DNA from: a virus
DNA length: 64,000 nt
Virus record (IMG/VR): IMGVR_UViG_3300031669_000002
Coordinates: 96,001-160,000 of that record
Strand: one strand, 5' to 3'
In this document: in pieces, positions 22,073-64,000 of the stretch
Position numbering within the stretch: the stretch's first letter is position 1
How the letters are laid out: each line of letters begins with the position of its first letter
Program-made: the position numbers and the translations under genes
Notes under the pieces: model-generated
The model's input: the letters and a program-made list of their open reading frames with translations, nothing else
Told to the model about the DNA's origin: nothing
Databases searched by the model: none

Positions 22073-22107
22073 TCTTTCGTAGTAGGATAACCAGCATAAA
22101 TAAGAGT

Positions 22108-49330: not shown

Positions 49331-50956
49331 ATGCGAATTATGACAAAACCAACAGATATTAGAAATATACTAAACACTCTATCCGAGCTCAATGAACAGA
49401 CCTTACTAGAAGTATCTCGAGGACTGTTATATAGAGCACCCGGAGACAGATTTATTCAGGGCGACCCCAAAAACCCAACCGCCACCCTAACTTTTGTGGG
49501 AGTTGATTATTTCCCCTCTAATCCAGGAGAATATGAAACATATGAAGAGATGGTCGAAGCAGGGAAACAGGCAATGCTCGACTATCCCGGCTTGGAGTTT
49601 TGCAATACGCCACAGCCAGGCTCAACCAGAGCATTCGCAATAATCACACTTGATGGACCACAACCAGGACAGCATACATATATTTGTCGATTCTTCAGAG
49701 CAATCGCAAATGATATGACAGGAGCTTGGAAGAATAACGGCATTCCAGGCGGGTGGCAATTAGCGAAAGCAAATGCACTTAAATCAAGTTATGGGTTAAA
49801 ACCAGCAGACTTGTTTGCACCCAATACAACTTTCCCTAATTCGTTGGCAGTTCTAACAGCACTAAACAAGAATGCAAAAGTAAAGGCATTGCTTCCTGGA
49901 CTACAGATGCTTCTCGGTGCTAAGATGCCAATCTTCAAAGATCAGAAAGATATGCTAGGCGCAATACAAGATGACTTAGGTGAAATAATGGCACCTGTTG
50001 CTCTGGCCCAAGGAATGATCACTGACTCAGGGGCAGAAGCAGCTAAGAAAGGATTACTAAACGGCGCAGATTGGTCAGGCGCAGAGATAAGTTTCCCTAC
50101 AGCTAAAAATGCTGGACTAGTTGATAGTTATGTTGTGGTTGATGGCATTGAAGTCGGCATTAGCAGTAAAGGAAAAAACGGCGCGAAGGCAAGTATCAAG
50201 AATGTCCAAGACGGCTTTGAGTTAGCAAGAGCAGAGCCATCAGCAGACCACGCAAGAGCACTTAAAAAATATGCTACACAAATCAAAGTAGTTGAAAAAA
50301 TTGGCGAACTTACTGCAAAGCAATTCCCGATAGAATATGGAATAGAGCTTGGTTTGATAACAGAAAAAGTCGGAAATAAGATTAACGAGTTGATCACTAC
50401 TGGTGCTAAGACATTAAATCAAATAACGATTAGTGCAGCAGAGAGAAAAGTTATTGAAGACTTGCTTGACAGAACAGATGCATCAACTACAAGTCTAAAC
50501 TATAATGTTGGATATCACGCACTGATGGTATTGGCAAGAGATGTAGCAACACAAATTAACGCAGACCCAAAGTTTGGCGAAGCATGTTTATATTTTGTGA
50601 ATATAAATCCAATCATTCAGATTTATCTGACGGCAGCCGCAGTCGGCAACGATGTGCATGTAACTAAATTGACATCGTTATATCCTCCAAATTTCCAAGG
50701 AACAGTTCTATTGGATGCAGGAAAAGGATATTATTCAAGCGGCGTTGGTGGAAAGATGGCATTTGCGTATGAACCAGATAAGAATGCAGCAGACAAAAAT
50801 GCACAGAGTCAGAAGGCACTTGCAAAGACAAATAAAATAGCAACAGCAAAAATTGATAAGATAACAAAGGGACACGTAGATATTCGTCCGCCAGGCACCG
50901 TAGCAAAAGAGCCGCGTGGAAAACGAGAAGTATCAGCACCAAGAGCGAGACGATAA
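49331..50956 (+). CDS. Hypothetical late protein, possible PD-(D/E)xK-like domain
   Basis: Late promoter at 49312; GLVDSYV..DGIEVGISSK motif. Confidence 0.55.
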   Translation: MRIMTKPTDIRNILNTLSELNEQTLLEVSRGLLYRAPGDRFIQGDPKNPTATLTFVGVDYFPSNPGEYETYEEMVEAGKQAMLDYPGLEFCNTPQPGSTRAFAIITLDGPQPGQHTYICRFFRAIANDMTGAWKNNGIPGGWQLAKANALKSSYGLKPADLFAPNTTFPNSLAVLTALNKNAKVKALLPGLQMLLGAKMPIFKDQKDMLGAIQDDLGEIMAPVALAQGMITDSGAEAAKKGLLNGADWSGAEISFPTAKNAGLVDSYVVVDGIEVGISSKGKNGAKASIKNVQDGFELARAEPSADHARALKKYATQIKVVEKIGELTAKQFPIEYGIELGLITEKVGNKINELITTGAKTLNQITISAAERKVIEDLLDRTDASTTSLNYNVGYHALMVLARDVATQINADPKFGEACLYFVNINPIIQIYLTAAAVGNDVHVTKLTSLYPPNFQGTVLLDAGKGYYSSGVGGKMAFAYEPDKNAADKNAQSQKALAKTNKIATAKIDKITKGHVDIRPPGTVAKEPRGKREVSAPRARR

Positions 50957-51249
50957 TGGACGCCCGACAAAAAGGTCTTGAGTTACTTGAGGACTGGTCT
51001 CAATATAAATCTGTGCAGTATAGCGAGAAAACATTATTTGATCGCGCAGTAAATATTGAAATTGAAAAGGATGCAGTAACACGGCTTGCTGGACTCGTTC
51101 AGCAAGCATTGATGGATGACAACTTTCCTACAGTTGAGTTAGATTATCGCAATAGAATGATGGAAACGCACCTACGCACTTTCAAAGATCAGATCACATT
51201 CGAGTTGCTCAGAAACGGATTCAAGGATCAACCCTCTCAAGCACTGTAG
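50956..51249 (+). CDS. Hypothetical protein
   Basis: TAATG coupling to the upstream gene. Confidence 0.65.
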   Translation: MDARQKGLELLEDWSQYKSVQYSEKTLFDRAVNIEIEKDAVTRLAGLVQQALMDDNFPTVELDYRNRMMETHLRTFKDQITFELLRNGFKDQPSQAL

Positions 51250-51258
51250 AGAAAGTCC

Positions 51259-51287
51259 TTGACATAGCACCTTAATGATGCTATTAT
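51259..51287 (+). promoter_or_regulatory. Sigma70 promoter of tRNA-Leu
   Basis: TTGACA-N17-TATTAT. Confidence 0.8.
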
Positions 51288-51301
51288 GTTGTTTAAGTTA
51301 A

Positions 51302-51420
51302 GCCTCGGTGGTGAAATTGGTAAACATAAGGGACTTCTTCGAGGGCTTGCGTAAAGCGAGTTCTCCTGAAAATCCCTCGGCCGCAAGGCCTTCCCGGTTC
51401 GAGTCCGGGTCGGGGCACCA
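51302..51420 (+). tRNA. tRNA-Leu(UAA) with 32-nt intron (51337-51368)
   Basis: Full cloverleaf with long V-arm and CCA; loop CT T^AA AA is interrupted. Confidence 0.85.
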
Positions 51421-51460
51421 AATAAGTAGTTGATTGTTAAGACGAAAAGAAAGTTGAAAA

Positions 51461-51611
51461 AGTTCTTGACAAAGTATCAAAAGACTGTATAATATAACAC
51501 TTAATGCAGTAAAGATAAGTTACGTGAGGTTGGCGGTGCATAACGTAACTTCGTTAGACAAAACCGCCACTATGAAATAGTTCTTGACAAAGTATCAAAA
51601 GACTGTATAAT
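51461..51611 (+). promoter_or_regulatory. Two identical 33-bp sigma70 promoters (51461-51493, 51579-51611)
   Basis: AGTTCTTGACAAAGTATCAAAAGACTGTATAAT occurs twice; 16-bp spacer. Confidence 0.85.
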
Positions 51612-51769
51612 AGAGTTATAGTAATAAATAGTTAAGTGTTATTTGTTTGAACCGCTCCACTGGTAATCAGCTCGGGGTCAGTATTGCAGATAATGCTTAA
51701 CTATTTAGATGCTAAGAAGCACTTTTTTTCGTTTCGGTATAAATAGTTATAAGAAAAAGAAAATAGTGC

Positions 51770-51798
51770 TTGACACGAAGCATAAATAAATATATAAT
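51770..51798 (+). promoter_or_regulatory. Sigma70 promoter with embedded late promoter
   Basis: TTGACA-N17-TATAAT whose spacer contains CATAAATA; a further TATAAATA lies near 51738. Confidence 0.85.
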
Positions 51799-51847
51799 GT
51801 AACACAAATGCAGCACTAATCTAAAGAAAGATAAACGAAAGCAGAAA

Positions 51848-52003
51848 ATGAACTCACTACTAAGAAACTTACAACCAACACATATTTGCCCGATAGCCGG
51901 GTTTAGTATACCTGTGTGGTCGCAAATTTCAGCAGTAGAGTCAGATTCACGCAATACACAGAATTATGAAGGCAAAGCAGCAAGGAGTCGTCCAGGGATT
52001 TAA
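51848..52003 (+). CDS. Putative attenuator leader peptide (51 aa)
   Basis: MNSLLRNLQPTHICPIAGFSIPVWSQISAVESDSRNTQNYEGKAARSRPGI; last codons overlap the antiterminator strand. Confidence 0.6.
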   Translation: MNSLLRNLQPTHICPIAGFSIPVWSQISAVESDSRNTQNYEGKAARSRPGI

Positions 52004-52028
52004 CGCAAAGAAAATGCGAAGAATTTAG

Positions 52029-52064
52029 AACCCTGGATCGAAAGAGACTGGGGTTTTTTGTTTT
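52029..52064 (+). terminator. Intrinsic terminator with alternative antiterminator pairing
   Basis: AACCCTGG..GAAA..CTGGGGTT plus TTTT; CCCTGGA also pairs with TCCAGGG (51991-51997). Confidence 0.8.
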
Positions 52065-52099
52065 GTAGCCAAGCAGTTGTTAAAAAGTTTAAAAAGTGC

Positions 52100-52128
52100 T
52101 TGACAATAGAATAAAAAGATAGTATAAT
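52100..52128 (+). promoter_or_regulatory. Sigma70 promoter of the ncRNA/tRNA island
   Basis: Perfect TTGACA-N17-TATAAT. Confidence 0.9.
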
Positions 52129-52692
52129 AGTTTATCGCAGTATTGAGAACTTAGCAGCAGACGCCGAAAGGCAACGGAGCGTAAGAGGACTAAGGAAGAT
52201 ATTGCAAAGTAGCAAACTGTTACAGAACACCGTGCAGTATAAAAAATGGCACAGACCATCGTGTTAGCAAACTGAGAAAACGAAAAATATCCCACTCAGT
52301 ATAATAAAGAATAACGGAAACCGAGGAATGAAATTGGCCTGTGATGAACAGGGTGCCCTTAAAAAGGCTTAGTAAAAATCGGTTATAATTAAAGTGCCTT
52401 TACGGAGACATTTTAATTATACACATTCAATTGGAAGGATACACTAGTTGACGACAGCGATTGAGTGTGTTACAAATTTTGAAACTATGAGATAGCGTCG
52501 CTAAACGATGTCGAGTAGGTTGCTAGTGTAGTGGTTGCACACTGCTGGCGAGTAAGGTAAGATGAGGTGTTAGCGCACTGATGAGATCCTGAAAAACTGG
52601 CGGAGGCGAAGGTTCGAATCTCTTTACATTCGTTCAATTAAATTAGTTCGACTCCTATGTACTTGTGATAAATAAGTACATAGGAGAAATAA

Positions 52693-53307
52693 ATGTTTTA
52701 TTTTTTGTATCAAACAACTAATCTTTTAAACGGTAAGATCTATGTAGGTGTTCATAAGACCAATAATTTAGATGATGATTACTTAGGAACCGGCACTCTT
52801 ATTAAGCAGGCTATTAAAAAATACGGTAAACAGAATTTCAAGAGAGTTATTTTAGAAATGTTTGATACTGCCGATAGTATGTACTTGCGAGAATCACAGG
52901 TCGTGACAAAAGCTTTTACTGATAGAGAAGATGTGTATAATATCCGTGTTGGAGGTAAGGCAGGAGTTGAGGAATTTCACGATAGGTTAAGATCAGATTC
53001 AACATTTAAGAAAGAATATTCTGCTAAACTAAGTGCAGCAGCACACAGAAGAATATTACGCGGTGACAGCAGTTTACACAGGTATACAAAAGAAGATGGA
53101 CTTAACGGTTCTGCCGCTGCTCTATCAGAAGATGCTAGAAAAAAGCGCAAGAATACATTTAACGAAATAGGTCATCAACAAGGTGAAAAGAATGCCCAGT
53201 ATGGCACGAGATGGATTACAAATGAATTACAAAGTATTAAAATAAAAAAAGATGCTCTAATTCCAAAAGGATGGAGAGCAGGTCGTGTTAATGGAAATAA
53301 GAAGTAG
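52693..53307 (+). CDS. Seg-like GIY-YIG homing endonuclease
   Basis: FLYQTTNLLNGKIYVGVHKT...YLGTG and QQGEKNAQYGTRWITN module. Confidence 0.85.
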   Translation: MFYFLYQTTNLLNGKIYVGVHKTNNLDDDYLGTGTLIKQAIKKYGKQNFKRVILEMFDTADSMYLRESQVVTKAFTDREDVYNIRVGGKAGVEEFHDRLRSDSTFKKEYSAKLSAAAHRRILRGDSSLHRYTKEDGLNGSAAALSEDARKKRKNTFNEIGHQQGEKNAQYGTRWITNELQSIKIKKDALIPKGWRAGRVNGNKK

Positions 53308-53725
53308 ATTCAAAGACACTGCACCGTCATTAAATGACAGCGCCTGGGCCGCGAAAGTGTCCACCAATTTTCTTTACTACAATGTTCTGAGCCGACACTT
53401 TGAATGAAGGCCACTTCAGTAGTAATCGTGATATGAGTCAATAGAGTTACACAAGAGTAATCCAGGGTAATTACTATATTTCCAATCACAGAATTCTGTT
53501 ATCCATGAGTTGTACTAGTGAAGTTTCTTCCACGGATAATGTAATACTTGAAGGCTGGCAAGTTATGTCCAGCAGACAGTGGAGACTGGAACCGAGATAA
53601 ACGGAACGTGTATGAGCTATTTTGACCGACGTTTATAGCATAGAACTCCGATTAACAGTGCGGTAGGGTAATAAATTTTGCATCCCGACTGTCAGTGATT
53701 GACAGAGACAAAGCAAATACGATAG

Positions 53726-53910
53726 AAGCACATTCAATTAACTGTGCGGTAATGGATGTTGGGATAAGTGAGTAGGCCACTCATGTAATACAATTGAAGT
53801 TATCCAATACGGTGACAGTTCGACAGGCGAATAGCCCCTACGAGGGGAAGAAGTAGGTTAATACAAAAGGGCAACTCCTACTCACTTTGTTCAGTTAATT
53901 GAATGTGCTT
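53726..53910 (+). ncRNA. Candidate structured RNA closed by a perfect 19-bp stem
   Basis: AAGCACATTCAATTAACTG/CAGTTAATTGAATGTGCTT; internal 10-bp stem 53767-76/53877-86. Confidence 0.6.
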
Positions 53911-53911
53911 A

Positions 53912-54099
53912 GAAATACATTTACTGGGACGCTCAGTTGGTGAACGATTCCAACTAGACGAGAACGGACCGCAGCGTGTTATCCTCGGTCAAATGCGGAA
54001 AATAGGGTGGTTCCTAGAGTACTGCAATATCTCGTGACAGCATAGCGATTGACCATCGTTTACTAGTGCGAACCTAGTGCATCCCAGTAAATGTATTTC
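53912..54099 (+). ncRNA. Candidate structured RNA closed by a perfect 18-bp stem
   Basis: GAAATACATTTACTGGGA/TCCCAGTAAATGTATTTC with several internal hairpins. Confidence 0.6.
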
Positions 54100-54411
54100 A
54101 ATAATTAGATTTGGGTTACTTGCTCCATTAGGCATTGCTAGGCGCTAAAGTTTAGCAATGTATGAAACCAGGTCCGAGTTACAAGATACGGGTAGACACC
54201 ATAGTCCCCAGATGTAGTAACAACAAAAGATGAGGCGATGGATTTAAACAGCAAGAAGTAATGAGAAAGGCTGTGAAGATATGGTGTTGACACAATCGGT
54301 TCTTCCTAAAGTTTCCTGCAGAAAGAAAACACTGCGACCTTAGCTTGAGCGGGCGGTATGTCAGTTACGAAACAGTAGGGTAGAAGCCCTTACGCTTAGG
54401 CACAAATTTAT

Positions 54412-54501
54412 GGAGAACGGGCTGGACGGCAAGGCAGAAGTTTGCTAAACTTTAGGACACATAATATGGTCCACAGGGTTCGACTCCCTGGTTCTCCGCC
54501 A
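54412..54501 (+). tRNA. tRNA-Ser(GCU)
   Basis: Cloverleaf, long V-arm, G73, CCA. Confidence 0.9.
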
Positions 54502-54511
54502 AACAAATTAT

Positions 54512-54586
54512 GCGTGGTAAGTGTTGGTGATTGCACGATTGGCTTCCACCCAATAAGATAGGGTTTGACTCCCTAACCCCGCGCCA
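54512..54586 (+). tRNA. tRNA-Gly(UCC), atypical
   Basis: Cloverleaf; one acceptor mismatch, G discriminator, CCA. Confidence 0.75.
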
Positions 54587-54638
54587 AACAATGGCACCTG
54601 CAAGTTGGTGTCTATATAAATGAACTTGCAAGAACAAT

Positions 54639-54709
54639 AGGTTGTTCGTCTAGTGGTAAGACCAGGCACTCCAAACGCCTTAACGAGGGTTCGATTCCTT
54701 CACTTCCTG
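54639..54709 (+). tRNA. tRNA-Trp(CCA), degenerate, no CCA end
   Basis: Two U-U acceptor mismatches; 3' end abuts a HEG cassette. Confidence 0.65.
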
Positions 54710-54737
54710 CATGTAGTAAATTTTGCATAAATAAGTT

Positions 54738-55415
54738 ATGTTCTATTACTTATATGAGGTCAAAAACAACCTCAATGGCAAAATTTACGTTGGAGTTCAT
54801 AAAACGAAGTCACTTGATGACGGATATATGGGCTCTGGAAAAGTTATTCGACATGCTATTAAAAAGCACGGAGTTGAAAACTTTACAAAAGTCATACTTG
54901 AGCAGTTTGATAATTCAGTTGCTATGTATGCAAGAGAAAAAGAAGTGGTCACCGATGAATTTTTACTACGCGAAGATGTGTATAATCTTCGACGTGGTGG
55001 CTTCGGTGGATTTGAATATATCAATAAGACCGGGTTAAACTTTAAGGGATATGCATCGCCTGCCGAACGTAGCAGACATATAAACCCATTCTTAAATAAA
55101 GATCGTTACTCAGCGGAATGGCATAGGATAGCCAAAAAAAATAAAACATCTGCTGCAAGTAAAGCAAGAAAATTAGGAAAAGGTCATAATTTTTCTGCCA
55201 TTGATTCAAAAAAAGGATGTATGTTGGCAGCAACACCGAAGGCAATAGAAAAAAGAAAAGAAACATTTGCTAAAATTGGTCACCAACAAGGCGAAAAGAA
55301 TTCACAAGCAGGAACAATGTGGATTACCAATGGCAAAGAAAACAAAAAGATTAAGAAGAATACATTTATTCCATGTGGATGGAATAAAGGTAGAATACAA
55401 GTTACGCCCTTTTAG
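54738..55415 (+). CDS. Seg-like GIY-YIG homing endonuclease
   Basis: YLYEVKNNLNGKIYVGVHKT...YMGSG; stop codon lies inside tRNA-Thr. Confidence 0.88.
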   Translation: MFYYLYEVKNNLNGKIYVGVHKTKSLDDGYMGSGKVIRHAIKKHGVENFTKVILEQFDNSVAMYAREKEVVTDEFLLREDVYNLRRGGFGGFEYINKTGLNFKGYASPAERSRHINPFLNKDRYSAEWHRIAKKNKTSAASKARKLGKGHNFSAIDSKKGCMLAATPKAIEKRKETFAKIGHQQGEKNSQAGTMWITNGKENKKIKKNTFIPCGWNKGRIQVTPF

Positions 55416-55478
55416 TATAACGGTCCATTATGCTTGTTTTGTAATCAAGTGATGGCGGTTCGATTCCGTCAAGGGGCA
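55406..55478 (+). tRNA. tRNA-Thr(UGU), no encoded CCA
   Basis: Cloverleaf; 3' end followed by CACATAGTAG (HEG cassette). Confidence 0.8.
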
Positions 55479-55519
55479 CACATAGTAGATTTTGTATAAA
55501 TAAGTAATGGAGACAAAAT

Positions 55520-56173
55520 ATGTTCTATTACTTATACGAAGTTAAAAATAATCTTAACGGTAAAATCTACGTAGGAGTTCATAAGACTAACGACTTAAAT
55601 GACGGGTATATGGGCTCTGGAAAGTATATTCGAAGTGTAATTACAAAACACGGAATTTCGAGTTTTACTAAAGTCATACTTGAGACTTTTGAGAATGCGG
55701 AAGCTATGTATGCAAGAGAAAAAGAGATAGTCACCGATGAATTTTTGTTACGCGACGATGTGTATAATTTACGTCGTGGAGGTTTTGGTGGATTTGATCA
55801 GATCAACAAAAAACTTACAAGTTCTGATTTTTCACGTAGAGGGAAAGTCGGCAGAAAGAAGCAGTTAATGTTTGCTGATGCGCCAACTTGGGGAAATAAT
55901 CCCAACTTTAATGAAATGCATAATAAGGGAATTATCACAAGAAAAAACCGAGGCGATAACTTTACAAAAGAAGCATGTAAATCGGCAGCTAGTATTGCAT
56001 CGATAGAAAAAAGAAAAAAGACATATAAAGAAACTTGTCATCAACACGGTGAAAAGAATTCGCAATATGGATCTATGTGGATTACTAATGGTTTAGAAAA
56101 TAAAAAGATTAAAAAGACCGATTCACTTCCGAGAGGATTTAGAAAAGGACGCTCTTCCAAGAAACAAAATTAA
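55520..56173 (+). CDS. Seg-like GIY-YIG homing endonuclease
   Basis: Close paralog of 54738 and 62179. Confidence 0.88.
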   Translation: MFYYLYEVKNNLNGKIYVGVHKTNDLNDGYMGSGKYIRSVITKHGISSFTKVILETFENAEAMYAREKEIVTDEFLLRDDVYNLRRGGFGGFDQINKKLTSSDFSRRGKVGRKKQLMFADAPTWGNNPNFNEMHNKGIITRKNRGDNFTKEACKSAASIASIEKRKKTYKETCHQHGEKNSQYGSMWITNGLENKKIKKTDSLPRGFRKGRSSKKQN

Positions 56174-56174
56174 T

Positions 56175-56251
56175 GCCCTTGTGATGGAATTGGGATACAT
56201 ACTAGATTTAGAATCTAGGTTCTGCAGGTTCGAAGCCTGTCAAGGGTACCA
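56175..56251 (+). tRNA. tRNA-Leu(UAG) with short variable loop
   Basis: Cloverleaf, A73, CCA; V region only about 5 nt. Confidence 0.8.
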
Positions 56252-56257
56252 AACAAT

Positions 56258-56331
56258 GGAGATATAGCCAAGCGGCCAGGCGATGGATTGCAAACCCATT
56301 TAGATAAGTTCGACTCTTATTATCTCCTCCA
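56258..56331 (+). tRNA. tRNA-Cys(GCA)
   Basis: Cloverleaf, U73, CCA. Confidence 0.9.
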
Positions 56332-56511
56332 AAATCGCAAGTGATGACAACTGGTGATGGTGTAATAGGCACACCGCTATTGACGCGGAGGTTAATGGGA
56401 TGTGAGGCCCTTAGAATCCAAGACAACCAGAGGACACGATCGGCCTTTTCGCTTCTGTACTAGTCGGAGGTTTGAACAAGCGACCAATTTTAATATTGAA
56501 ATGCACGAATG

Positions 56512-56581
56512 ACCCATGAGATGTAATGGTTTACATGTCGGCTTAAAACCGAGATAAGGTGGTTCGATTCCACCCATGGCG
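56512..56581 (+). pseudogene. Degenerate tRNA (UAA loop, 4-bp anticodon stem, no CCA)
   Basis: D and T arms intact; acceptor has only 5 bp. Confidence 0.5.
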
Positions 56582-56598
56582 AGACTTGCATTAGATAT

Positions 56599-56672
56599 GC
56601 TGGTATCGTATAATGGTATTACGGTTGTTTCGTAAGCAACTTATGAGGGCTCGAATCCTTCTACCAGCACCA
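56599..56672 (+). tRNA. tRNA-Thr(CGU)
   Basis: Cloverleaf, CCA; T-loop CTCGAAT. Confidence 0.88.
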
Positions 56673-56678
56673 AATTAT

Positions 56679-56753
56679 GCAACATTGAAGAGAGTGGCTG
56701 TCGTCCGCACCTACACTGCGGGTAGGTTGGTTCGATTCCAACATGTTGCACCA
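56679..56753 (+). tRNA. tRNA-Val(UAC), atypical
   Basis: Perfect acceptor, anticodon and T stems; weak D stem; loop CC TAC AC. Confidence 0.65.
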
Positions 56754-56865
56754 AGTTTTTTGCAAAAAGAAAGGTGACGCGGTAAGCATAAATGTGTGGT
56801 GCTTATAAAATCCGACAAAACGTCAGGGGTAAAACTCCATACGCACAGCCAAATTTAATAACAAT

Positions 56866-56949
56866 GCGTCGTACGCCTTATGGAGGGCACGTGGCTGTAA
56901 CCCACAGGTCGGCTAGTCCGAGTTGGTTCGATTCCAGCATGACGCACCA
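56866..56949 (+). tRNA. tRNA-Tyr(GUA)
   Basis: Cloverleaf, long V-arm, CCA. Confidence 0.85.
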
Positions 56950-57074
56950 AATTTAAAGATACGCCGTTGGTCATAGGCGCATACGATTACCTAAAATTGA
57001 GACCCATTAAACCGGGCCACTTGAGTAGGGCAAGGTAGCAATTCCTGATAGTAATTGCATTGACCAAGAACAAT

Positions 57075-57159
57075 GGGTGGGGACTGGCGCTGGCGACTAG
57101 AGCGGACTGTAACTCCGTGGCCTCACGGCCGATAGGTTCGACTCCTATACCACCCACCA
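57075..57159 (+). tRNA. tRNA-Tyr(GUA), second copy
   Basis: Cloverleaf, long V-arm, CCA. Confidence 0.85.
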
Positions 57160-57222
57160 AGTTTTGTTAGTGAACTAAAGATAAACGCTCGCACATATCA
57201 ATACAGAGTTTATACAAACATT

Positions 57223-57315
57223 GGTCCCGTAGTTTAAGGAAAACAAACGGCTTTATATACCGTCAAGGCTCTAGATGAGGGCAAGTCGTGGGATCGTTAC
57301 CCACCGGGACTACCA
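57223..57315 (+). tRNA. Atypical type-II tRNA, probable UAU anticodon
   Basis: 7-bp acceptor, 9-nt anticodon loop region CTTTATATA, 23-nt V region, T-loop ATCGTTA, A73, CCA. Confidence 0.7.
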
Positions 57316-57317
57316 GA

Positions 57318-57356
57318 TGGGCTGGAACGACACGGATCGTAACCGTAGGAGTACCA
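57318..57356 (+). pseudogene. Orphan 3' half of a tRNA (T-arm plus ACCA)
   Basis: ACGG-ATCGTAA-CCGT then AGGAGT-ACCA; T-arm nearly identical to that of tRNA-Glu at 59069. Confidence 0.55.
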
Positions 57357-57389
57357 TATTTTAGTAACAAAGCAGAGAGTATTCTTTGC

Positions 57390-57465
57390 TCCGTAAAATC
57401 CGAGCATGGCGCATGGACGTGACTGTTAATCACTGGTTAGGCTGGTTCGATTCCAGCATACGGAG
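57390..57465 (+). tRNA. tRNA-Asn(GUU), ends CAA, extended acceptor helix
   Basis: Cloverleaf; flanks TATTCTTTGC/GCAAAGAATA pair. Confidence 0.75.
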
Positions 57466-57519
57466 CAAAGAATATTTAGGTAACGCGATAGACTGCATAA
57501 ATACAATATAGGAGTAATT

Positions 57520-58149
57520 ATGTTGAATTGTAAATTTTGTGCTAAGGACTGTAAAAATGCAAACTCATTAAGAAATCATGAAAGGTTATGCAAAGAAAAC
57601 CCAGAGCATCAAACTACATATTTCTCAACACCAGAACGTAAACTTGATATGCGGTGTAGAACAAATCAATTCATAAAAGCAGAAAGAGAAGGATTACCAA
57701 AGCCAATTGTATCTGCTATTACAAGAAAGAAAAGTTCTGATGCAGTTTTATCTAGAACCAACGAATGGAATAAAGAAAATGGAAAACGAATTGCCAAAAC
57801 TATTGCCGAGAAAGTTGCTAACGGCACATGGCATACTTCATTAGCTAAGAACATGCATTACGATTATAACGGTGTTGATTTACATGGCTCGTGGGAATTA
57901 TCGTATGCAATGTATCTCGACGAAAACAAAATAAAGTGGGTGCGCAATAAAGACTCATTTGCGTATGTATTTGAAGGCAAGACCCGAAAATATACTCCGG
58001 ACTTTTTCTTAGTAGATACTAAAGAGTATGTAGAAGTCAAAGGATATAACACAGAAAAAGATGATGCTAAGTGGACACAGTTTCCGCTCGCATTAAAAGT
58101 GTTGATGAAAAAAGATTTATTGGAGCTAGGTATTAAAATAAAGTTATAA
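57520..58149 (+). CDS. TnsA-like PD-(D/E)xK homing endonuclease with N-terminal Zn finger
   Basis: CKFC...H...C; GSWEL.Y...LD; YTPDFFL...YVEVKG. Confidence 0.8.
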   Translation: MLNCKFCAKDCKNANSLRNHERLCKENPEHQTTYFSTPERKLDMRCRTNQFIKAEREGLPKPIVSAITRKKSSDAVLSRTNEWNKENGKRIAKTIAEKVANGTWHTSLAKNMHYDYNGVDLHGSWELSYAMYLDENKIKWVRNKDSFAYVFEGKTRKYTPDFFLVDTKEYVEVKGYNTEKDDAKWTQFPLALKVLMKKDLLELGIKIKL

Positions 58150-58168
58150 AGTATTTTACAAAGTTTAT

Positions 58169-58243
58169 GGGCTGATAGTGATAGTGATAGCACATCGCGC
58201 TTGCACCGCGAGAGCCGGGGTTTGATTCCCCGTCGGTCCACCA
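58169..58243 (+). tRNA. tRNA-Ala(UGC)
   Basis: G3-U70, CCA. Confidence 0.9.
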
Positions 58244-58249
58244 AGTTAT

Positions 58250-58323
58250 AGTCCTGTCCTCTAACGGTAAGAGGGTCGCCCGATTAGCGACTAATTTCAG
58301 TTCGACTCTGAATGGGACCACCA
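58250..58323 (+). tRNA. tRNA-Ile(GAU), atypical loop
   Basis: Cloverleaf; loop CC GAT TA; A1-C72 mismatch; CCA. Confidence 0.7.
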
Positions 58324-58448
58324 AACAAATAAAGACCTTAGTAAAAGAGTGCCGCATGTCACTGAACCATGCTACAAGGTTTTTAGAACAACGGGGGATT
58401 AGGCTAGTTGAAATGTTAAGCTACTGCTTTCCCAACATAAATAATAGT

Positions 58449-59003
58449 ATGAAACGAATATTAATCAATGACATGCCCTGGACAGTAATACAAGCCGAGT
58501 ATGATTCGGGATTATCAATAAGAGACATAGGTAAAAAACGAAGCATGAGTGGAAAAACGTTTGCTAACGCACGGCGATTGGGACTATTTACTTCCAGAAC
58601 TGCATCAGAATCATTAAAGATAAAGCATCAAATTAGTCCAAGAGATTATTCAGCGGTTCGTAGTCAGAGGTCAGCATTAACTAACTATAGAGCAGACTGT
58701 GCTTTTAAGTTTAATCTTAACAGTTATCCCGATGAGTTTGAATTTACATTAGTCGAAAGATATGGATGGTATAAAGCTAAAAATAGGGGCGACAACCAGA
58801 CTGGGATCAGCAGAGACCACTCAGTAAGTGTTAGGTATGGGTTTGATAACAAGTTATCAGCAGAACATTTATCACATCCAGCAAACTGTGCATTAATGCA
58901 ACATGGAAAAAACGTATCAAAAGGTAAAAAGAATACAATGTCTTATGAAGAATTGCTTACTCGCATTGAATCATGGGATAAGAAATATGGGCTGTTAGTA
59001 TAG
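58449..59003 (+). CDS. HNH-like homing endonuclease
   Basis: SRDHSVSV..GF...SHPANC...N.SKG, paralogous to 22108; start at 58449 after late promoter at 58436; stop inside tRNA-Ala. Confidence 0.75.
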   Translation: MKRILINDMPWTVIQAEYDSGLSIRDIGKKRSMSGKTFANARRLGLFTSRTASESLKIKHQISPRDYSAVRSQRSALTNYRADCAFKFNLNSYPDEFEFTLVERYGWYKAKNRGDNQTGISRDHSVSVRYGFDNKLSAEHLSHPANCALMQHGKNVSKGKKNTMSYEELLTRIESWDKKYGLLV

Positions 59004-59062
59004 CGGGATTACGTCGCCCTTGCACGGCGAATACCGGGGTTCGACTCCCCGACGGTCCACCA
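58989..59062 (+). tRNA. tRNA-Ala(UGC), second copy
   Basis: G3-U70, CCA. Confidence 0.9.
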
Positions 59063-59068
59063 AACAAC

Positions 59069-59143
59069 ACTGCTGTCGTCTACTGGATAGGACGCTAGGC
59101 TTTCAACCTGGAGAAGACGGATCGTAACCGTTCAGCAGTACCA
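59069..59143 (+). tRNA. tRNA-Glu(UUC)
   Basis: Cloverleaf, T-loop ATCGTAA, CCA. Confidence 0.85.
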
Positions 59144-59159
59144 GATTTAAAAGAACAAT

Positions 59160-59238
59160 TGGGGAATAGCCAAGACAGGCCTAAGGCAACGGGTTTTGAA
59201 CCCGTCATTCGTTGGTTCGAATCCAACTTCCCTAGCCA
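59160..59238 (+). tRNA. tRNA-Gln(UUG)
   Basis: U1-A72, G73, CCA. Confidence 0.9.
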
Positions 59239-59242
59239 AATT

Positions 59243-59299
59243 AGGATGCCTACTGCAAATTAAAAATTTCACTTTCAATGAAACCCAATGTGCATCCTG
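59243..59299 (+). ncRNA. AGGAT...ATCCTG mini-RNA with UUC anticodon-like hairpin
   Basis: 7-bp closing stem; TTTCA-CTTTCAA-TGAAA. Confidence 0.55.
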
Positions 59300-59325
59300 T
59301 AAAATATTTGAGTAGTACGCATTGT

Positions 59326-59399
59326 CGGAGATTGGGAAAGCTTGGTAATCCGTCTGTTTTGGGAACAGAAGACCGTTGGTTCGAATCCAACATTTCCGA
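59326..59399 (+). tRNA. tRNA-Pro(UGG), ends CAA, extended acceptor helix
   Basis: Cloverleaf; flanks TACGCATTGT/ACAATGCGTA pair. Confidence 0.85.
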
Positions 59400-59440
59400 C
59401 AATGCGTATTAATAGACAGATTTAGTTTTGTGTATATCGT

Positions 59441-59514
59441 CTGTGCGTGGTGACAAGTGGACGTCGACTCGGTTTGGAACCGAGAATATGCCGGTTCGAG
59501 GCCGGCCGCACCGA
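59441..59514 (+). tRNA. tRNA-Pro(UGG), second copy, ends CAA, extended acceptor helix
   Basis: Cloverleaf; 14 of 15 flank positions pair. Confidence 0.75.
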
Positions 59515-59536
59515 CAATATACATAAAAAGAACAAT

Positions 59537-59610
59537 TGCGACTTATCATGGCGATACGCTGGTCTCATAAGCCAGGTCGGAAGGTAGTTCGATTCTACCG
59601 GTCGCAACCA
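59537..59610 (+). tRNA. tRNA(CAU) with shortened D-arm
   Basis: 7-bp acceptor, loop CT CAT AA, CCA. Confidence 0.7.
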
Positions 59611-59616
59611 ATTAAT

Positions 59617-59694
59617 GGCGAGGTTGATAGGTAGAAATCATTGAGCCCTCATAAGGCCAATATAGGCCAGTGCAAGTCTGAGCCCTCGCAACCA
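59617..59694 (+). tRNA. tRNA(CAU), irregular T-arm
   Basis: 1-72 mismatch, T-loop TGCAAGT, CCA. Confidence 0.65.
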
Positions 59695-59703
59695 ATTTTA
59701 AAT

Positions 59704-59773
59704 CCCGCGTCCAGTGGAAGGACAGGAGTCTTCGAAACTCCCAGGAACGGCTCGACTCCGTTACGTGGGTCCA
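59704..59773 (+). tRNA. tRNA-Arg(UCG), contracted acceptor/D junction
   Basis: GGAGT-CTTCGAA-ACTCC anticodon arm; T-arm; CCA. Confidence 0.65.
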
Positions 59774-59939
59774 AATTTTGTTAGTCGTACAGCTGAACGC
59801 CTTTGTTGTCATAGCAATGAACAACACTGAACCGCCGTAAGCCTTCTAACAAAACTAATGCACTGCCAACGTGATATAAGGTTCCGCTAGTATCCTTTAT
59901 ATACGACATTGCATTAGATAGGGACTAGCAAAGAACAAT

Positions 59940-60015
59940 CGCAGGGTAGAGGAGATAGTTCATCATTGGTCTCATAAGCCAAACCAGGGCAGTGCAAGTC
60001 TGCCACCTGCAACCA
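59940..60015 (+). tRNA. tRNA(CAU), initiator-like
   Basis: C1-A72 mismatch, T-loop TGCAAGT, CCA; lacks the three G-C anticodon pairs. Confidence 0.75.
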
Positions 60016-60023
60016 TTTTCAAA

Positions 60024-60094
60024 CGTCTGATAGTTTAATTAAAACGTTCTCCAGATAGGGGAATCATGTGGTGTAGAATCCACGAGGACGACCA
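60024..60094 (+). pseudogene. Degenerate tRNA-like element ending ACCA
   Basis: Partial acceptor, D and T stems; abnormal loops. Confidence 0.45.
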
Positions 60095-60098
60095 GTTA

Positions 60099-60159
60099 AG
60101 GATAGGTACAGCAAATCACAACCGCTAACCTTTTATGTCTAGCGACAAAAACTATCCTG
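60099..60159 (+). ncRNA. AGGAT...ATCCTG mini-RNA with UUU anticodon-like hairpin
   Basis: AGGATAG/CTATCCT stem; ACAGCAAA; CGCTA..CTTTTAT..TAGCG. Confidence 0.55.
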
Positions 60160-60168
60160 TTAAATTAT

Positions 60169-60242
60169 GCCTCTATCATTTAATGGTAGGATGCCGGCCT
60201 GTCTAGTCGGATGCAGGGGTTCGATTCCCCTTGGAGGCGCCA
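60169..60242 (+). tRNA. tRNA-Asp(GUC)
   Basis: Cloverleaf, G73, CCA; U at position 37. Confidence 0.88.
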
Positions 60243-60248
60243 AACATT

Positions 60249-60323
60249 GCCCTTATCGTATAGCGGAGAATACACGAGTCTTCTAAACTTGGAACAGAGG
60301 TTCGATTCCTCTTGAGGGCACCA
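60249..60323 (+). tRNA. tRNA-Arg(UCU)
   Basis: Cloverleaf, CCA. Confidence 0.92.
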
Positions 60324-60336
60324 ATAGGAGTAACAA

Positions 60337-60516
60337 ATGAATGCCAGTGAAATTGCTTTATTAAAAGAAGAAATAAAAGAAGAAATTCTTAACGAACTAA
60401 GATCAAGATTGGCCATAACCACAAGCAGTGGATATGAACGCGGAGTAAAAGAAATTGAGTTGAGATTAGATGGAGAATTAATTTCTTCAGATACAATTTA
60501 TTTTTCAATAAACTAA
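60337..60516 (+). CDS. Small hypothetical protein (59 aa)
   Basis: AGGAG RBS; MNASEIALLKEEIKEE... Confidence 0.65.
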   Translation: MNASEIALLKEEIKEEILNELRSRLAITTSSGYERGVKEIELRLDGELISSDTIYFSIN

Positions 60517-60606
60517 AAAGGAAAAAGAAATGAAACGAGGTAAACGATAGTGTCAGCTTAGTCCCATGTATGGTCTAAGTCTAGTGTTATCAGCATAAAT
60601 AACTAT

Positions 60607-61179
60607 ATGATAACAAAACATTATCCAACTGACTATTATGTTTATGCCTATTTACGAGAAGATGGTAGTCCGTATTATATTGGCAAAGGCAAGGGTGACA
60701 GAGCATGGCATAAACGCCAGCATGAGACAAAACCGCCAAAAGATAGAAGCAGAGTAGTTGTTGTTGAGCAAGAATTAACTCAAGTGGGTGCGCTTGCAAT
60801 AGAACGGAGATTGATTTGTTGGTATGGTCGTAAGGATTTAGGGACAGGAATTCTCAGAAATAAAACTGACGGCGGCGATGGTAATCCTGGATTAAAACAC
60901 TCTGATAAATCTAAAGCATTGATGAGTAAGAAGGCCCGTGCGTCGGCTGCTAAATTGTCAGATGATGGCAAAAGTATTAAAGCAGAAAAATATAGAGCAA
61001 CAATTCTTGCCAAAACAGATAAAGACCGCAAAACAAGATTAGAGAAATTGTCTGACATTTCAAGTGGCACAGTATGGATAAATGATGGTGTTACTAGTCG
61101 AAGAGTTAAACTACTCGAATCTGTTCCGTCTGGGTGGCAACGCGGTAGAATTAAATTAAATAATGGGATGCAAGTGTAA
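60607..61179 (+). CDS. GIY-YIG homing endonuclease
   Basis: [28 protein letters not shown] and NKTDGGDG; stop inside tRNA-Lys. Confidence 0.85.
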
Positions 61180-61239
61180 ATGGTGACACAGGAGACTTTT
61201 AATCTTCAGAATCGGGTTCGATTCTCTGCGGTCCCACCA
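61165..61239 (+). tRNA. tRNA-Lys(UUU), degenerate
   Basis: Good D and anticodon arms; mismatched acceptor and T stems; CCA. Confidence 0.6.
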
Positions 61240-61252
61240 AACAAAATTTTAT

Positions 61253-61338
61253 GGGATCGTAGCCTAGAGGCCAGGCACCGGACTTTTAATCCGGCAATCG
61301 CAAGATAAACGTGAGTTCGATTCTCACCGGTCCTACCA
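61253..61338 (+). tRNA. tRNA with UUU anticodon and 16-nt variable arm
   Basis: Clean cloverleaf; V-arm ATC-GCAA-GAT; CCA. Confidence 0.85.
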
Positions 61339-61342
61339 CTCT

Positions 61343-61417
61343 CTTCCGCAAACTTTAGTGGTGAAGTGCAAGACTCTTAATCTTGAAAACTCAGTTCGAC
61401 TCTGAGGCGGAGGACCA
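61343..61417 (+). tRNA. tRNA-Lys(CUU)
   Basis: Cloverleaf, CCA. Confidence 0.9.
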
Positions 61418-61424
61418 AATTTTT

Positions 61425-61472
61425 GGGCTATGCAGGCGCTTGTGGCGGGTTCGATTACCGTAAGGTCCACCA
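61425..61472 (+). ncRNA. 48-nt mini-tRNA with G3-U70, T-arm and ACCA
   Basis: GGGCTAT/AAGGTCC acceptor; no D or anticodon arm. Confidence 0.55.
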
Positions 61473-61538
61473 CAAAATATTTTAGATAGTGTCGACGCTA
61501 TTGCTCTATGGGAAAGCCATAGTAAAATATTTTGTAAT

Positions 61539-61598
61539 GGGCCTAGCTGGGTCTTTCTCCCGGGAGAAAAAGGGGTTCGAGTCCCCTATAGTCCACCA
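61539..61598 (+). ncRNA. 60-nt D-armless mini-tRNA with G3-U70 and ACCA
   Basis: GGGC/GTCC acceptor end; AGGGG-TTCGAGT-CCCCT T-arm. Confidence 0.55.
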
Positions 61599-61604
61599 AA
61601 CAAC

Positions 61605-61678
61605 GGTGATTTAGTTCAATGGCAGAACGGAGCTCTCATAAGGCTTAGACGAAGGATCGTAACCTTCACTCACCACCA
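61605..61678 (+). tRNA. tRNA(CAU) (elongator Met or lysidine-Ile)
   Basis: Cloverleaf, T-loop ATCGTAA, CCA. Confidence 0.85.
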
Positions 61679-61801
61679 AGTAGTGCAATCGTAGCCGTAA
61701 GGCGGTTAAGTCGTTGACGATTTAAAATAAAGCAACGGTGAGTGCAGCTGGTCACTTTCACTAGGACATTAGTATTAGGTTACTAACCAGCAACAAATTA
61801 C

Positions 61802-61877
61802 GCAACTTTAGCTGATGTGGTCATAGCAGGTGCCTGAAGAGCACATGAAACAGGTCCGATTCCTGTAGGTTGCACCA
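61802..61877 (+). tRNA. tRNA-Phe(GAA)
   Basis: Cloverleaf, CCA. Confidence 0.88.
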
Positions 61878-61885
61878 AATAAAAC

Positions 61886-61961
61886 GCCTAGTTGAAGTGA
61901 GAGGTTAGCTACTTGCTCGACAAGCAAGGATATACTGGTTCGAGTCCAGTACTAGGCACCA
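61886..61961 (+). tRNA. tRNA-Val(GAC)
   Basis: Perfect acceptor, anticodon and T stems; weak D stem; loop TC GAC AA. Confidence 0.75.
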
Positions 61962-61964
61962 ATA

Positions 61965-62055
61965 TTTCTTGAGTTATATTCGTCTAAAGGTAAAGACACT
62001 TCCTCGCTCAGAGGTAGAAATGTTATATTCGAACTATTCCATATTTCCAAGAAAC
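61965..62055 (+). pseudogene. Decayed tRNA with paired flanks
   Basis: Recognisable D-arm GTCT/AGAC; TTTCTTG/CAAGAAA flanks; broken T-arm. Confidence 0.35.
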
Positions 62056-62061
62056 AAATAT

Positions 62062-62136
62062 GTCTCTGTAGATTACGGCAGGCTAGATCGACACCCTTTC
62101 AAGGTGTAGAACCGGGTTCGACCCCCGGTAGGGACT
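62062..62136 (+). tRNA. tRNA-Glu(UUC), no encoded CCA
   Basis: Cloverleaf; followed by CACATAGTAG (HEG cassette). Confidence 0.8.
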
Positions 62137-62178
62137 CACATAGTAGATTTTGTATAAATACAATTAAGGAGAACAGAA

Positions 62179-62925
62179 ATGTTTTATTACTTGTATGAAA
62201 TAACAAATACCATTAATGGTAAAATCTACGTAGGAGTTCATAAGACCAACAACTTAAATGATGGGTATATGGGCTCTGGAAAAGTTATTCGACGTGCTAT
62301 GGAAAAGTATGGTGCCGAAAACTTTACAAAAGTCATACTTGAGCAATTCGACGATTCAGTTGCTATGTATGCAAGAGAAAAAGAAGTAGTTTCCGCCTCA
62401 TTTCTTCTACGAGAAGATGTATATAACTTACGCCGAGGAGGAACTGGAGGATTTGATTATATCAATAAACATAAGTTAAATTCAACATGGAATAATGTTG
62501 GCAAACAGCCCGGAACAAAGGCGGTATATTTTACTGCCGAAGATGGGAGGCGCCAACAAATTCTTAATAAGAAAAATAAAACTGGCGCTTATTCTGCCAA
62601 TTTTAAAAATGCATTCAAAGATAAATTACGCCAAGCAGATTTTCAATCACGATCACAGAGTGTAGCCGCAATGGTAAAGAGAAAGAATACTTTTGCAGAA
62701 TCTAGACATCAACAAGGCGAAAAGAATTCACAGTTTGGTATGATGTGGATTACTAATGATATAAAAGATAAGAAGATTAGAAAGACAGATTCTATTCCAG
62801 ATGGATTCAGGAAGGGCAAGAAATATAACCCCCAACAAGTAGAATTTTGTCCGCACTGCCATAAAGAAGGTGCAGGCTCTAACATGAAAAGATATCACTT
62901 TAATAACTGTAAACAAAACGGTTAA
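62179..62925 (+). CDS. Seg-like GIY-YIG homing endonuclease with extra C-terminal Zn module
   Basis: Paralog of 54738 and 55520; CPHC..MKRYHFNNC. Confidence 0.88.
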   Translation: MFYYLYEITNTINGKIYVGVHKTNNLNDGYMGSGKVIRRAMEKYGAENFTKVILEQFDDSVAMYAREKEVVSASFLLREDVYNLRRGGTGGFDYINKHKLNSTWNNVGKQPGTKAVYFTAEDGRRQQILNKKNKTGAYSANFKNAFKDKLRQADFQSRSQSVAAMVKRKNTFAESRHQQGEKNSQFGMMWITNDIKDKKIRKTDSIPDGFRKGKKYNPQQVEFCPHCHKEGAGSNMKRYHFNNCKQNG

Positions 62926-62943
62926 GAAACTTACAAAAAGTTC

Positions 62944-62972
62944 TTGACTAAAGCACAGCATTATGCAATAAT
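62944..62972 (+). promoter_or_regulatory. Sigma70-like promoter
   Basis: TTGACT-N17-AATAAT. Confidence 0.6.
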
Positions 62973-63027
62973 AGATAATAAGTTTTGCAACCAAGTTGCA
63001 GAAAACGATCTTTAAGAATTTAAGAAT

Positions 63028-63300
63028 TTGGGGAAGTATAATTTCCCGTTAGTTGGCCTCGGCCGATTAACATAAAGGATAAGTGCAGCGATGCACCCAA
63101 TGCGGCGAAGATTACATAACCGCTCCGTAAGGCCATTTATACAAGCCTGCTCACCGTGGTGACACGGCGTTCACTGATAAGACCGGTGGATGTAAAGATG
63201 AAGCATGTAGTTGTGGAAAGAACGTTTGCTCAAGCGCCTGGCGTCCTCGCAAGGGACTTAATAATGTCTGAAGGTATTCGATGTGTGATTGTATTCCCAA
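63028..63300 (+). ncRNA. Candidate 273-nt structured RNA
   Basis: Terminal stem TTGGGGA.GTATAAT/ATTGTAT.TCCCAA; several GNRA-capped hairpins. Confidence 0.6.
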
Positions 63301-63363
63301 TCTACTACTTTAACCCAATAACATTTACAAAAGTGTTATTCAGTTAATGATAAATAAATTTAC

Positions 63364-63437
63364 GCGGGATTCGTATATGGGTATTACCTGAGTTTTCCAA
63401 ACTCATGAAGGGAGTTCGACTCTCCCATCCCGCTCCA
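63364..63437 (+). tRNA. tRNA-Gly(UCC)
   Basis: Cloverleaf, U73, CCA. Confidence 0.92.
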
Positions 63438-63457
63438 AACACATAAAGGAGAAAATC

Positions 63458-63607
63458 ATGCATGACTTCGCAGATAAAATAATGGTTTCCGCCCTAGTGG
63501 TAATGCTTATTCCCTTAGTTACATATCTTTGCTACATAATCATAACTGGAAAAGAAGTTATTGATGATGGCAACGATATGGAGGGCGATAGTATATACGC
63601 AATATAA
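63458..63607 (+). CDS. Small membrane protein (49 aa)
   Basis: AAGGAG RBS; hydrophobic IMVSALVVMLIPLVTYLCYIII segment. Confidence 0.6.
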   Translation: MHDFADKIMVSALVVMLIPLVTYLCYIIITGKEVIDDGNDMEGDSIYAI

Positions 63608-63654
63608 AAATTATGGAGCTTGACTTTTGATCGTCGATGTGCTAATATTTAATA

Positions 63655-64000
63655 ATGTATAAGTGTTTATATTGTCAAAAAGAATTCAGAAATGCTGGAG
63701 GATTAGGTTCTCATCATCCTTACTGTAAGCAAAATCCTGTTCGTGTGAAAAGAGTAAAGTCTCCAAATGCACATAAGAGAAAAGGTTCAGCAGCCTGGAA
63801 TAAAGGGCTAACAACTCCTCAAGAAGTCAGAGACAAAATATCCCAGTCGTTGATAGGAGTATCAACCGGCAAAGGTTCTACTCCGGAAATAGAAGCAGAA
63901 CGAATTAGAAAAGTTACAGAAAAAGCAAAATTGCACAACGGCGGCCACAGACAGGGGTCTGGTCGAGGGAAGAAGGGCTGGTATAAAGGATTTTTCTGCG
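63655..64000 (+). CDS. Zn-finger homing endonuclease (probably TnsA-like), 3'-truncated by the window
   Basis: MYKCLYC...SHH.YCKQNP resembles the N-terminus of 57520; GSGRGKKGWYKG. Confidence 0.6.
   Translation, partial: MYKCLYCQKEFRNAGGLGSHHPYCKQNPVRVKRVKSPNAHKRKGSAAWNKGLTTPQEVRDKISQSLIGVSTGKGSTPEIEAERIRKVTEKAKLHNGGHRQGSGRGKKGWYKGFFC

Follow-up and report, generated by a model that had tools for sequence, protein, structure and literature searches.

A putative ribosome-mediated attenuator heading the tRNA region of an uncultured phage and of its metagenomic relatives

Why phages carry arrays of tRNA genes, and how these arrays are controlled, is an open question on which the locus described here bears. 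The window, i.e. the whole stretch of DNA analysed (64,000 nucleotides), covers bases 96001-160000 of a 178-kb viral contig whose completeness is estimated at about half. The 178-kb record contains 44 tRNA genes covering 19 amino acids; a tRNA-Asn gene was not found in it. Twenty-eight tRNA genes are called in the window, in an array on the plus strand (54412-63437), and a compact module formed of a promoter, a short ORF and a terminator is located upstream of this array. Is the array the target of the module, as presumed here, and what would such a module respond to? The analysis of the window and of its relatives leads to the view that the module is probably a ribosome-mediated leader-peptide transcription attenuator, heading the tRNA region and sensing overall decoding.

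From the 5’ to the 3’ end, the module begins with a sigma-70 promoter on the plus strand (51770-51798) that matches the consensus at 12 positions out of 12: TTGACA (51770-51775), a 17-nt spacer and TATAAT (51793-51798), from which a transcription start near 51805 is expected. This promoter is conserved in the relatives L059, L005, L007 and L002. The window contains five perfect sigma-70 promoters, compared with 0.10 expected, and four of them lie within 51466-52128. A late-type promoter motif, TATAAATA (51738-51745, plus strand; core ATAAATA from 51739), is located upstream of the sigma-70 promoter and occupies the same place in relatives, and a second ATAAATA (51782-51788) is found within the spacer of the sigma-70 promoter itself. 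ATAAATA occurs 29 times on the plus strand of the window and twice on the minus strand, and 12 of the 29 copies lie at most 40 nt upstream of an ORF start, where 0.8 would be expected. To note, plus-strand copies often stand just 4-5 nt before an ATG (for example at 22096, 54727 and 60595), which suggests that the late transcripts are leaderless or nearly so. Just past the terminator, a second sigma-70 promoter (52100-52128, plus strand) also matches the consensus at 12 of 12 positions, without an embedded late motif.

The DNA in front of the module has features of its own. The region 51455-51735 harbors two 40-nt promoter repeats that are 98% identical (51455-51494 and 51573-51612), each being a perfect sigma-70 promoter followed by a short non-coding stretch; the stretch after the second repeat contains a 21-nt inverted repeat (51625-51645/51687-51707) with a T run at its end. 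Further upstream, a tRNA-Leu(UAA) gene (51302-51420), preceded by a promoter matching 11 of 12 consensus positions at 51259, carries a 32-nt insertion in its anticodon loop, and only the intron option of ARAGORN reveals it. At the equivalent place in L059 (2159-2274), a 116-nt tRNA is called by Rfam, so that the anticodon-loop insertion is conserved. Across the family, tRNA genes located before the module are few or absent.

The leader ORF (51848-52003, plus strand) is 51 codons long and terminates with TAA (52001-52003). It contains all 20 amino acids, written with 35 distinct codons; there are no runs of one regulatory codon, each amino acid being present about once. The probability of encountering all 20 amino acids in 51 codons is about 2% by chance. 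The original prediction had thus read the DNA correctly on several counts: a perfect sigma-70 promoter accompanied by late promoters, the latter now with a strand bias and an enrichment before ORF starts, a 51-codon ORF with this composition, and, as a caveat, a separate promoter at 52100 downstream of the terminator. Within the ORF, a G+C-rich hairpin is predicted at 51888-51902 (plus strand), followed by the single Trp codon (51917-51919); it is a candidate pause hairpin. The residues surrounding this Trp in the window resemble the SecM motif. A SecM-like arrest was set aside, as the family drops those residues and the C-terminal end of the leader is constrained as RNA in three frames.

The 3’ end of the module can adopt two structures, all of whose elements lie on the plus strand. 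The last sense codons of the leader form the 5’ strand (51990-51997) of an antiterminator helix, P1, whose 3’ strand (52031-52038) is also the 5’ arm of an intrinsic terminator (52031-52064). This segment being common to both, the two structures are mutually exclusive. Inside P1, the inner helices (51999-52029) comprise P2 (51999-52003/52025-52029), which holds the stop codon, and P3 (52004-52007/52015-52018). The terminator stem pairs 52031-52036 and 52038-52039 with 52046-52053 around a loop (52040-52045), and its U tract covers 52054-52059, followed by a G and four more T. The alternative hairpin is predicted at -18.2 kcal/mol (z -4.2) and the terminator hairpin (52031-52053) with its U tract at -13.2 kcal/mol (z -2.6). 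The original prediction proposed that the last codons pair with the terminator 5’ arm (51991-51997/52031-52037) around a small nested hairpin. Both helices are found in the predicted fold, the hairpin being P3; set against ORF ends with shuffled codons, the 7-nt pairing reaches p = 0.04, and folding extends it to 51990-51997/52031-52038. The composition of the window’s leader and the 7-nt pairing are each only mildly unusual taken alone, and the strength of the case comes from relatives.

These relatives are found in metagenomes. Near and distant DNA searches returned no near relative of the window from a collection of phage isolates, and even the nearest cultured phages, PA5oct-like and Rak2-like jumbo phages, are distant, with 33% identity over one-third of one protein. 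A 541-amino-acid protein neighbouring the module has hundreds of metagenomic homologues; it has no match in the phage isolate collection and no related loci in viral contigs, where the exact terminator pattern also gives zero matches. The closest contigs, L002 and L003 (71% identity), display the syntenic order of promoter, 52-codon ORF, terminator and promoter. With the 51-amino-acid peptide as query, an exhaustive protein search retrieved three small homologues, and further loci were obtained with two DNA patterns, an 18-mer from the ORF and the terminator tail. A DNA profile of the module then picked about 45 homologous loci and a covariance model added a further clade. Homologous modules are present in about 45 metagenomic phage contigs. 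The retrieval of modules rested on the terminator tail and not on any property of the ORF. A second module was not found in the 178-kb record.

Each module contains one candidate ORF, never a second, and this ORF is conserved in 38 distinct forms. The corresponding peptides are 40 to 67 residues long and fall into 12 clusters at 50% identity, with a median identity of 33%. All 20 amino acids are present in 30 of the 38 peptides and 19 of them in the other eight, none containing fewer; several leaders of merely 40-42 residues hold the complete set. The null for this composition is 0.4-4.6% with random peptides of these lengths and 0.2-6.9% with windows of real genes from the same genome; with length-matched ORFs of the same loci it is 39 of 503, mostly the leaders themselves. 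Cys is found in 36 of the 38 leaders, as a single copy in 33, and is spread across 19 alignment columns; His, with about one copy, moves over 14 columns, and Tyr behaves similarly. Even within the clade of the window, Cys is residue 14 in the window as compared to residue 8 in its three nearest relatives. Codon diversity is elevated as well (mean z 2.35). The distance from the leader stop codon to the terminator is constant (26-34 nt). In 10 lineages the leader ATG is located about 7 nt past the -10 box, at the expected transcription start, which implies a leaderless mRNA. Judging from these sequences, the leader is real as a conserved ORF and its composition appears to be selected. The original prediction, which made the all-20 composition the point of the leader, agrees with the 30 complete leaders, with rare residues kept at about one copy while they shift position, and with modules heading tRNA arrays. 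Two peptide blocks, one around the single Trp and the other resembling D-R-T-P-E, are conserved with synonymous variation within them, and this conservation exceeds the needs of a pure composition sensor.

The leader may be compared with the tRNAs that the phages encode. In the window, 32 of the 51 leader codons have an exact cognate among the phage tRNAs, where 29.8 would be expected (P = 0.27), and several relatives show a depletion. A leader acting as a codon-matched roster is rejected for the window’s leader family, as there is no enrichment for phage anticodons. At the level of amino acids, the leader of phage G001 lacks only Trp and its array of 30 genes lacks only tRNA-Trp; the leader of phage G002 lacks Trp although this phage has a tRNA-Trp. 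With one match and one mismatch, this test is only suggestive.

A helix that joins the ORF end to the first CCC of the terminator and the bases just ahead of it is found in 31 of 31 modules and is individually significant in 22 of them, with compensatory variants such as GGGTCC/GGACCC, GGGTTC/GAACCC and GGGTAC/GTACCC. Since MAFFT and RNAalifold gave one-base misalignments on the antiterminator, a covariance model (R1) was used instead. In the resulting alignment (A6), 87.7% of the cells in the antiterminator pair, compared with 69.0% after shuffling, and 22 of the 23 pairs are doubly changed; as this alignment is fitted to the model structure, the fairer comparison is a control in which the partner strand is slid by one to three columns, where pairing reaches at most 53%. 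Covariation of the stems in related phages, by which the original prediction could be judged, is thus observed, and together with the predicted fold switching, an antiterminator that covaries and overlaps the terminator supports the proposed geometry of classical attenuation. All three reading frames are represented at the GGG core of P1 (18, 12 and 1 modules), which indicates a constraint on the RNA and not on the peptide. Nested helices equivalent to P2 and P3 enclose the stop codon across the family. The terminator varies in concert: its 3’ arm differs among relatives and the 5’ arm changes alongside, so that pairs are kept, and in L120, which differs from the window by one base in the terminator, a G-U pair becomes G-C.

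Most modules also contain a G+C-rich mid-ORF hairpin of differing sequence and frame, followed by a TGG located 56-83 nt (mostly 66-75 nt) from the ATG. In L159 (module ORF, about 1470), which belongs to the single clade with Trp-less leaders, the TGG after the hairpin is still there, out of frame, so that its conservation is at the RNA level. The mid-ORF hairpin may serve as an RNA polymerase pause hairpin.

The following scheme accounts for these parts and treats the leader as a track on which decoding is tested. Transcription of the 51-codon leader would start from the sigma-70 promoter and probably also from the late-type one. The last codons of the leader would serve as the 5’ strand in an antiterminator stem of three parts; the 3’ strand of the latter is at the same time the first part of the terminator stem. 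When translation proceeds smoothly to the stop codon, the ribosome would occupy the 5’ strand, the terminator would form and the transcript would end at 52054-52064. With no ribosome on the leader, or with one that stalls earlier for a shortage of any charged tRNA, the stabler antiterminator would form and RNA polymerase would read through towards the tRNA genes. As each amino acid is present about once in the leader, any single shortage would be sensed. We infer that translation sets termination, that the switch works in this direction, and that RNA polymerase pauses at the mid-ORF hairpin. It may be speculated that tRNA-cleaving defences of the host act as a trigger.

Constrained folding of the window follows this scheme: the free RNA is predicted to adopt the antiterminator; placing a ribosome at the stop codon turns the fold into the terminator, and placing a stalled one at codon 20 yields the antiterminator. 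In static folds of 31 family members, the free RNA adopts the antiterminator in 24 and the terminator in 7. The median stabilities are -23.0 kcal/mol for the antiterminator and -11.1 kcal/mol for the terminator. A ribosome stalled at codon 20 is predicted to leave the antiterminator in 24 of 31 modules, and a ribosome at the stop codon to yield the terminator in 18 of 31 (the window and 17 others). In the other 13, a standard footprint at the stop codon leaves the 5’ strand of P1 uncovered, just behind the ribosome, and the predicted fold stays antiterminator; for these modules, steric or kinetic arguments are needed.

What lies beyond the switch is consistent with a role in tRNA expression. 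At every locus with enough DNA, the module precedes an array of 10-37 tRNA genes on its own strand. Module and array are 100-1100 nt apart in relatives, the window being an outlier: its first tRNA gene, at 54412, is 2.36 kb past the module, with a non-coding stretch and the gene of a GIY-YIG homing endonuclease in between. In at least 14 lineages, the next ORF has a ribosome-binding site that adjoins the U tract of the terminator, which leaves this ORF without a promoter of its own and reachable by read-through only. The second sigma-70 promoter complicates the picture in the window. Promoters of the 52100 type are found in the clade of the window and in L002, and the strict pattern is missing from about 20 of 31 modules. 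In the window, this promoter makes the downstream DNA transcribable without passing the switch, which therefore cannot be the sole gate to the array; given such a promoter, and a first tRNA gene 2.36 kb away, the most that the switch can do here is to supplement the transcription of the array or to set its timing. As the 52100 promoter has no late motif, one may speculate that the switch matters mainly for transcripts issued from the late promoter.

The DNA between the terminator and the arrays holds several further features. The ORF that adjoins the U tract is a conserved helical one of about 53 codons, with no Pfam family; it starts right past the U tract, ahead of the tRNA array, in L213 (5908-6069, minus strand), L143 (3272-3430, plus strand) and about 12 other loci. 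In L002, a 39-amino-acid ORF with its own promoter right after the terminator (15671-15790) is a homologue of the ribosome-rescue factor ArfA (Pfam, 29.6 bits for a cut-off of 25.5); no ArfA homologue was found in the window’s own 178-kb record. A conserved non-coding sequence separates the attenuator from the first tRNA gene in the window (52135-52690), in L004 (370-848) and in L002 (15800-16110); L159, L201 and L236 also carry such a sequence just after the terminator, short blocks being common across clades, and Rfam returned no match for it. In the window, this sequence is followed by the GIY-YIG gene (52693-53307; PHROG 314, E 1e-36), before which a perfect 13-bp hairpin (52652-52686) encloses ATAAATA and covers the ribosome-binding site. 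The 1.1-kb non-coding gap before the first tRNA gene contains two inverted repeats (53726-53744/53892-53910, 19 nt, 100%; 53912-53932/54079-54099, 21 nt, 95%). Within the array, two weak tRNA-like genes (56512-56582 and 61165-61236) are seen by Rfam and missed by ARAGORN at default settings; with a lowered threshold they are called as Leu(UAA) and Lys(UUU).

The same attenuator might respond to another signal than the shortage of a particular charged tRNA, namely general translation capacity or the timing of infection, through ribosome availability, initiation on the leader, or the switch from host to late transcription; the varied composition would then simply be that of an average mRNA. The missing codon-level match to phage anticodons speaks for this option, as do the default-on logic of an antiterminator far stabler than the terminator, the superimposition of early and late promoter motifs, and the presence, after the terminator in the clade of the window, of a promoter devoid of a late motif. 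An average mRNA, however, would not keep exactly one Cys, Trp and His as their positions wander, nor would it hold all 20 residues in 40 codons, and in G001 Trp alone is lacking from both the leader and the array. A signal of this kind is judged rather unlikely.

Two other explanations dispense with attenuation by decoding. One is that the ORF is a small-protein gene of the ordinary kind, equipped with a promoter and a terminator; its peptide would act in trans, and its pairing would do no more than tune mRNA stability or gene-end efficiency. The two peptide blocks that hold their place with synonymous variation would fit such a gene, and so would the strong promoter that restarts transcription after the terminator in the clade of the window. 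Yet the median peptide identity is just 33%, with rare residues that wander; the end of the ORF is under an RNA-level constraint in three frames, promoterless ORFs adjoin the U tract, and a terminator out-competed by 12 kcal/mol would be a poor gene end. The peptide, moreover, matches no Pfam or PHROG family, and this explanation is regarded as improbable. Still less credible, to the point of being very improbable, is a non-coding structured RNA or protein-binding riboregulator in which the ORF is incidental. The features conserved at the RNA level (the mid-ORF hairpin, the out-of-frame TGG of L159 and P1-P3) would be its signature, but 38 diverged forms all keep an open frame, the ATG coincides with the transcription start in 10 lineages, and the content in all 20 amino acids is meaningful only at the level of translation. 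Rfam gave no family match for the module or the downstream RNA (E up to 1 for window 50000-64000; E up to 0.1 for the relatives).

The attenuator reading, which we prefer, can be carried further. The module might be a universal decoding sensor of jumbo phages, with a pangram leader of one codon per amino acid in which any stall opens the tRNA array, and in relatives a ribosome-rescue gene, so that the phage would compensate by itself for starvation or for tRNA loss caused by host defences. This wider proposal is judged slightly less likely than not. If true, a leader selected for all 20 amino acids would be the first general decoding sensor, as opposed to a sensor of a single amino acid, and the expression of phage tRNAs would be tied directly to the translation state of the infected cell. 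In addition, the sequence and structure of the family offer a signature by which the 5’ boundary of tRNA operons can be located in uncultured phages. A full-text literature search returned no account of phage tRNA genes under leader-peptide control; to our knowledge, the established cases of leader-peptide attenuation concern enzymes of amino-acid synthesis or charging, and not tRNA genes.

The closest known systems are the attenuators of amino-acid operons, such as trpL, hisL, leuL and thrL, or the multivalent leader of ilvGMEDA, in which smooth translation leads to termination and stalling to read-through. The phage module shares with them a short leader ORF, an intrinsic terminator, a mutually exclusive antiterminator on the path of the ribosome and a candidate pause hairpin. 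It differs in its presumed targets, phage tRNA genes instead of biosynthetic enzymes, and in its leader, where each of the 20 amino acids has about one codon and runs are absent. Furthermore, two structures compete here, without the 1:2 anti-antiterminator of classical attenuators, so that an untranslated leader should read through, and some members are leaderless.

T-box riboswitches (Rfam RF00230 clan) act on synthetase or amino-acid genes through the direct binding of one uncharged tRNA, with no translation involved. The sensing of tRNA charging proposed here, and the choice between a terminator and an antiterminator, are common to both, whereas the proposed sensor of the phage module is a ribosome on an ORF; Rfam matched no T-box (specifier loop, T-box sequence or stem I) in window 50000-64000 or in the relatives.

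A further parallel comes from the leaderless polycysteine short ORFs of mycobacteria, in which a Cys tract senses one amino acid and controls access to a ribosome-binding site, at the translational level (bioRxiv 10.1101/834739). The likeness to the phage module is that a short ORF opening a leaderless polycistronic transcript has a sensory role, and that the position of the ribosome decides the RNA structure; the phage module departs from these ORFs by its canonical terminator hairpin with a U tract and by its roster of 20 residues. Lastly, the trn operon of Anabaena comprises 26 tRNA genes under a DNA-binding repressor, TrcR, acting at the promoter (PMC10272220). Common to both would be an array of accessory tRNA genes whose low expression is turned up when translation is under stress. 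The difference lies in the means: a promoter repressor in the bacterium, a leader peptide and an RNA switch in the phage.
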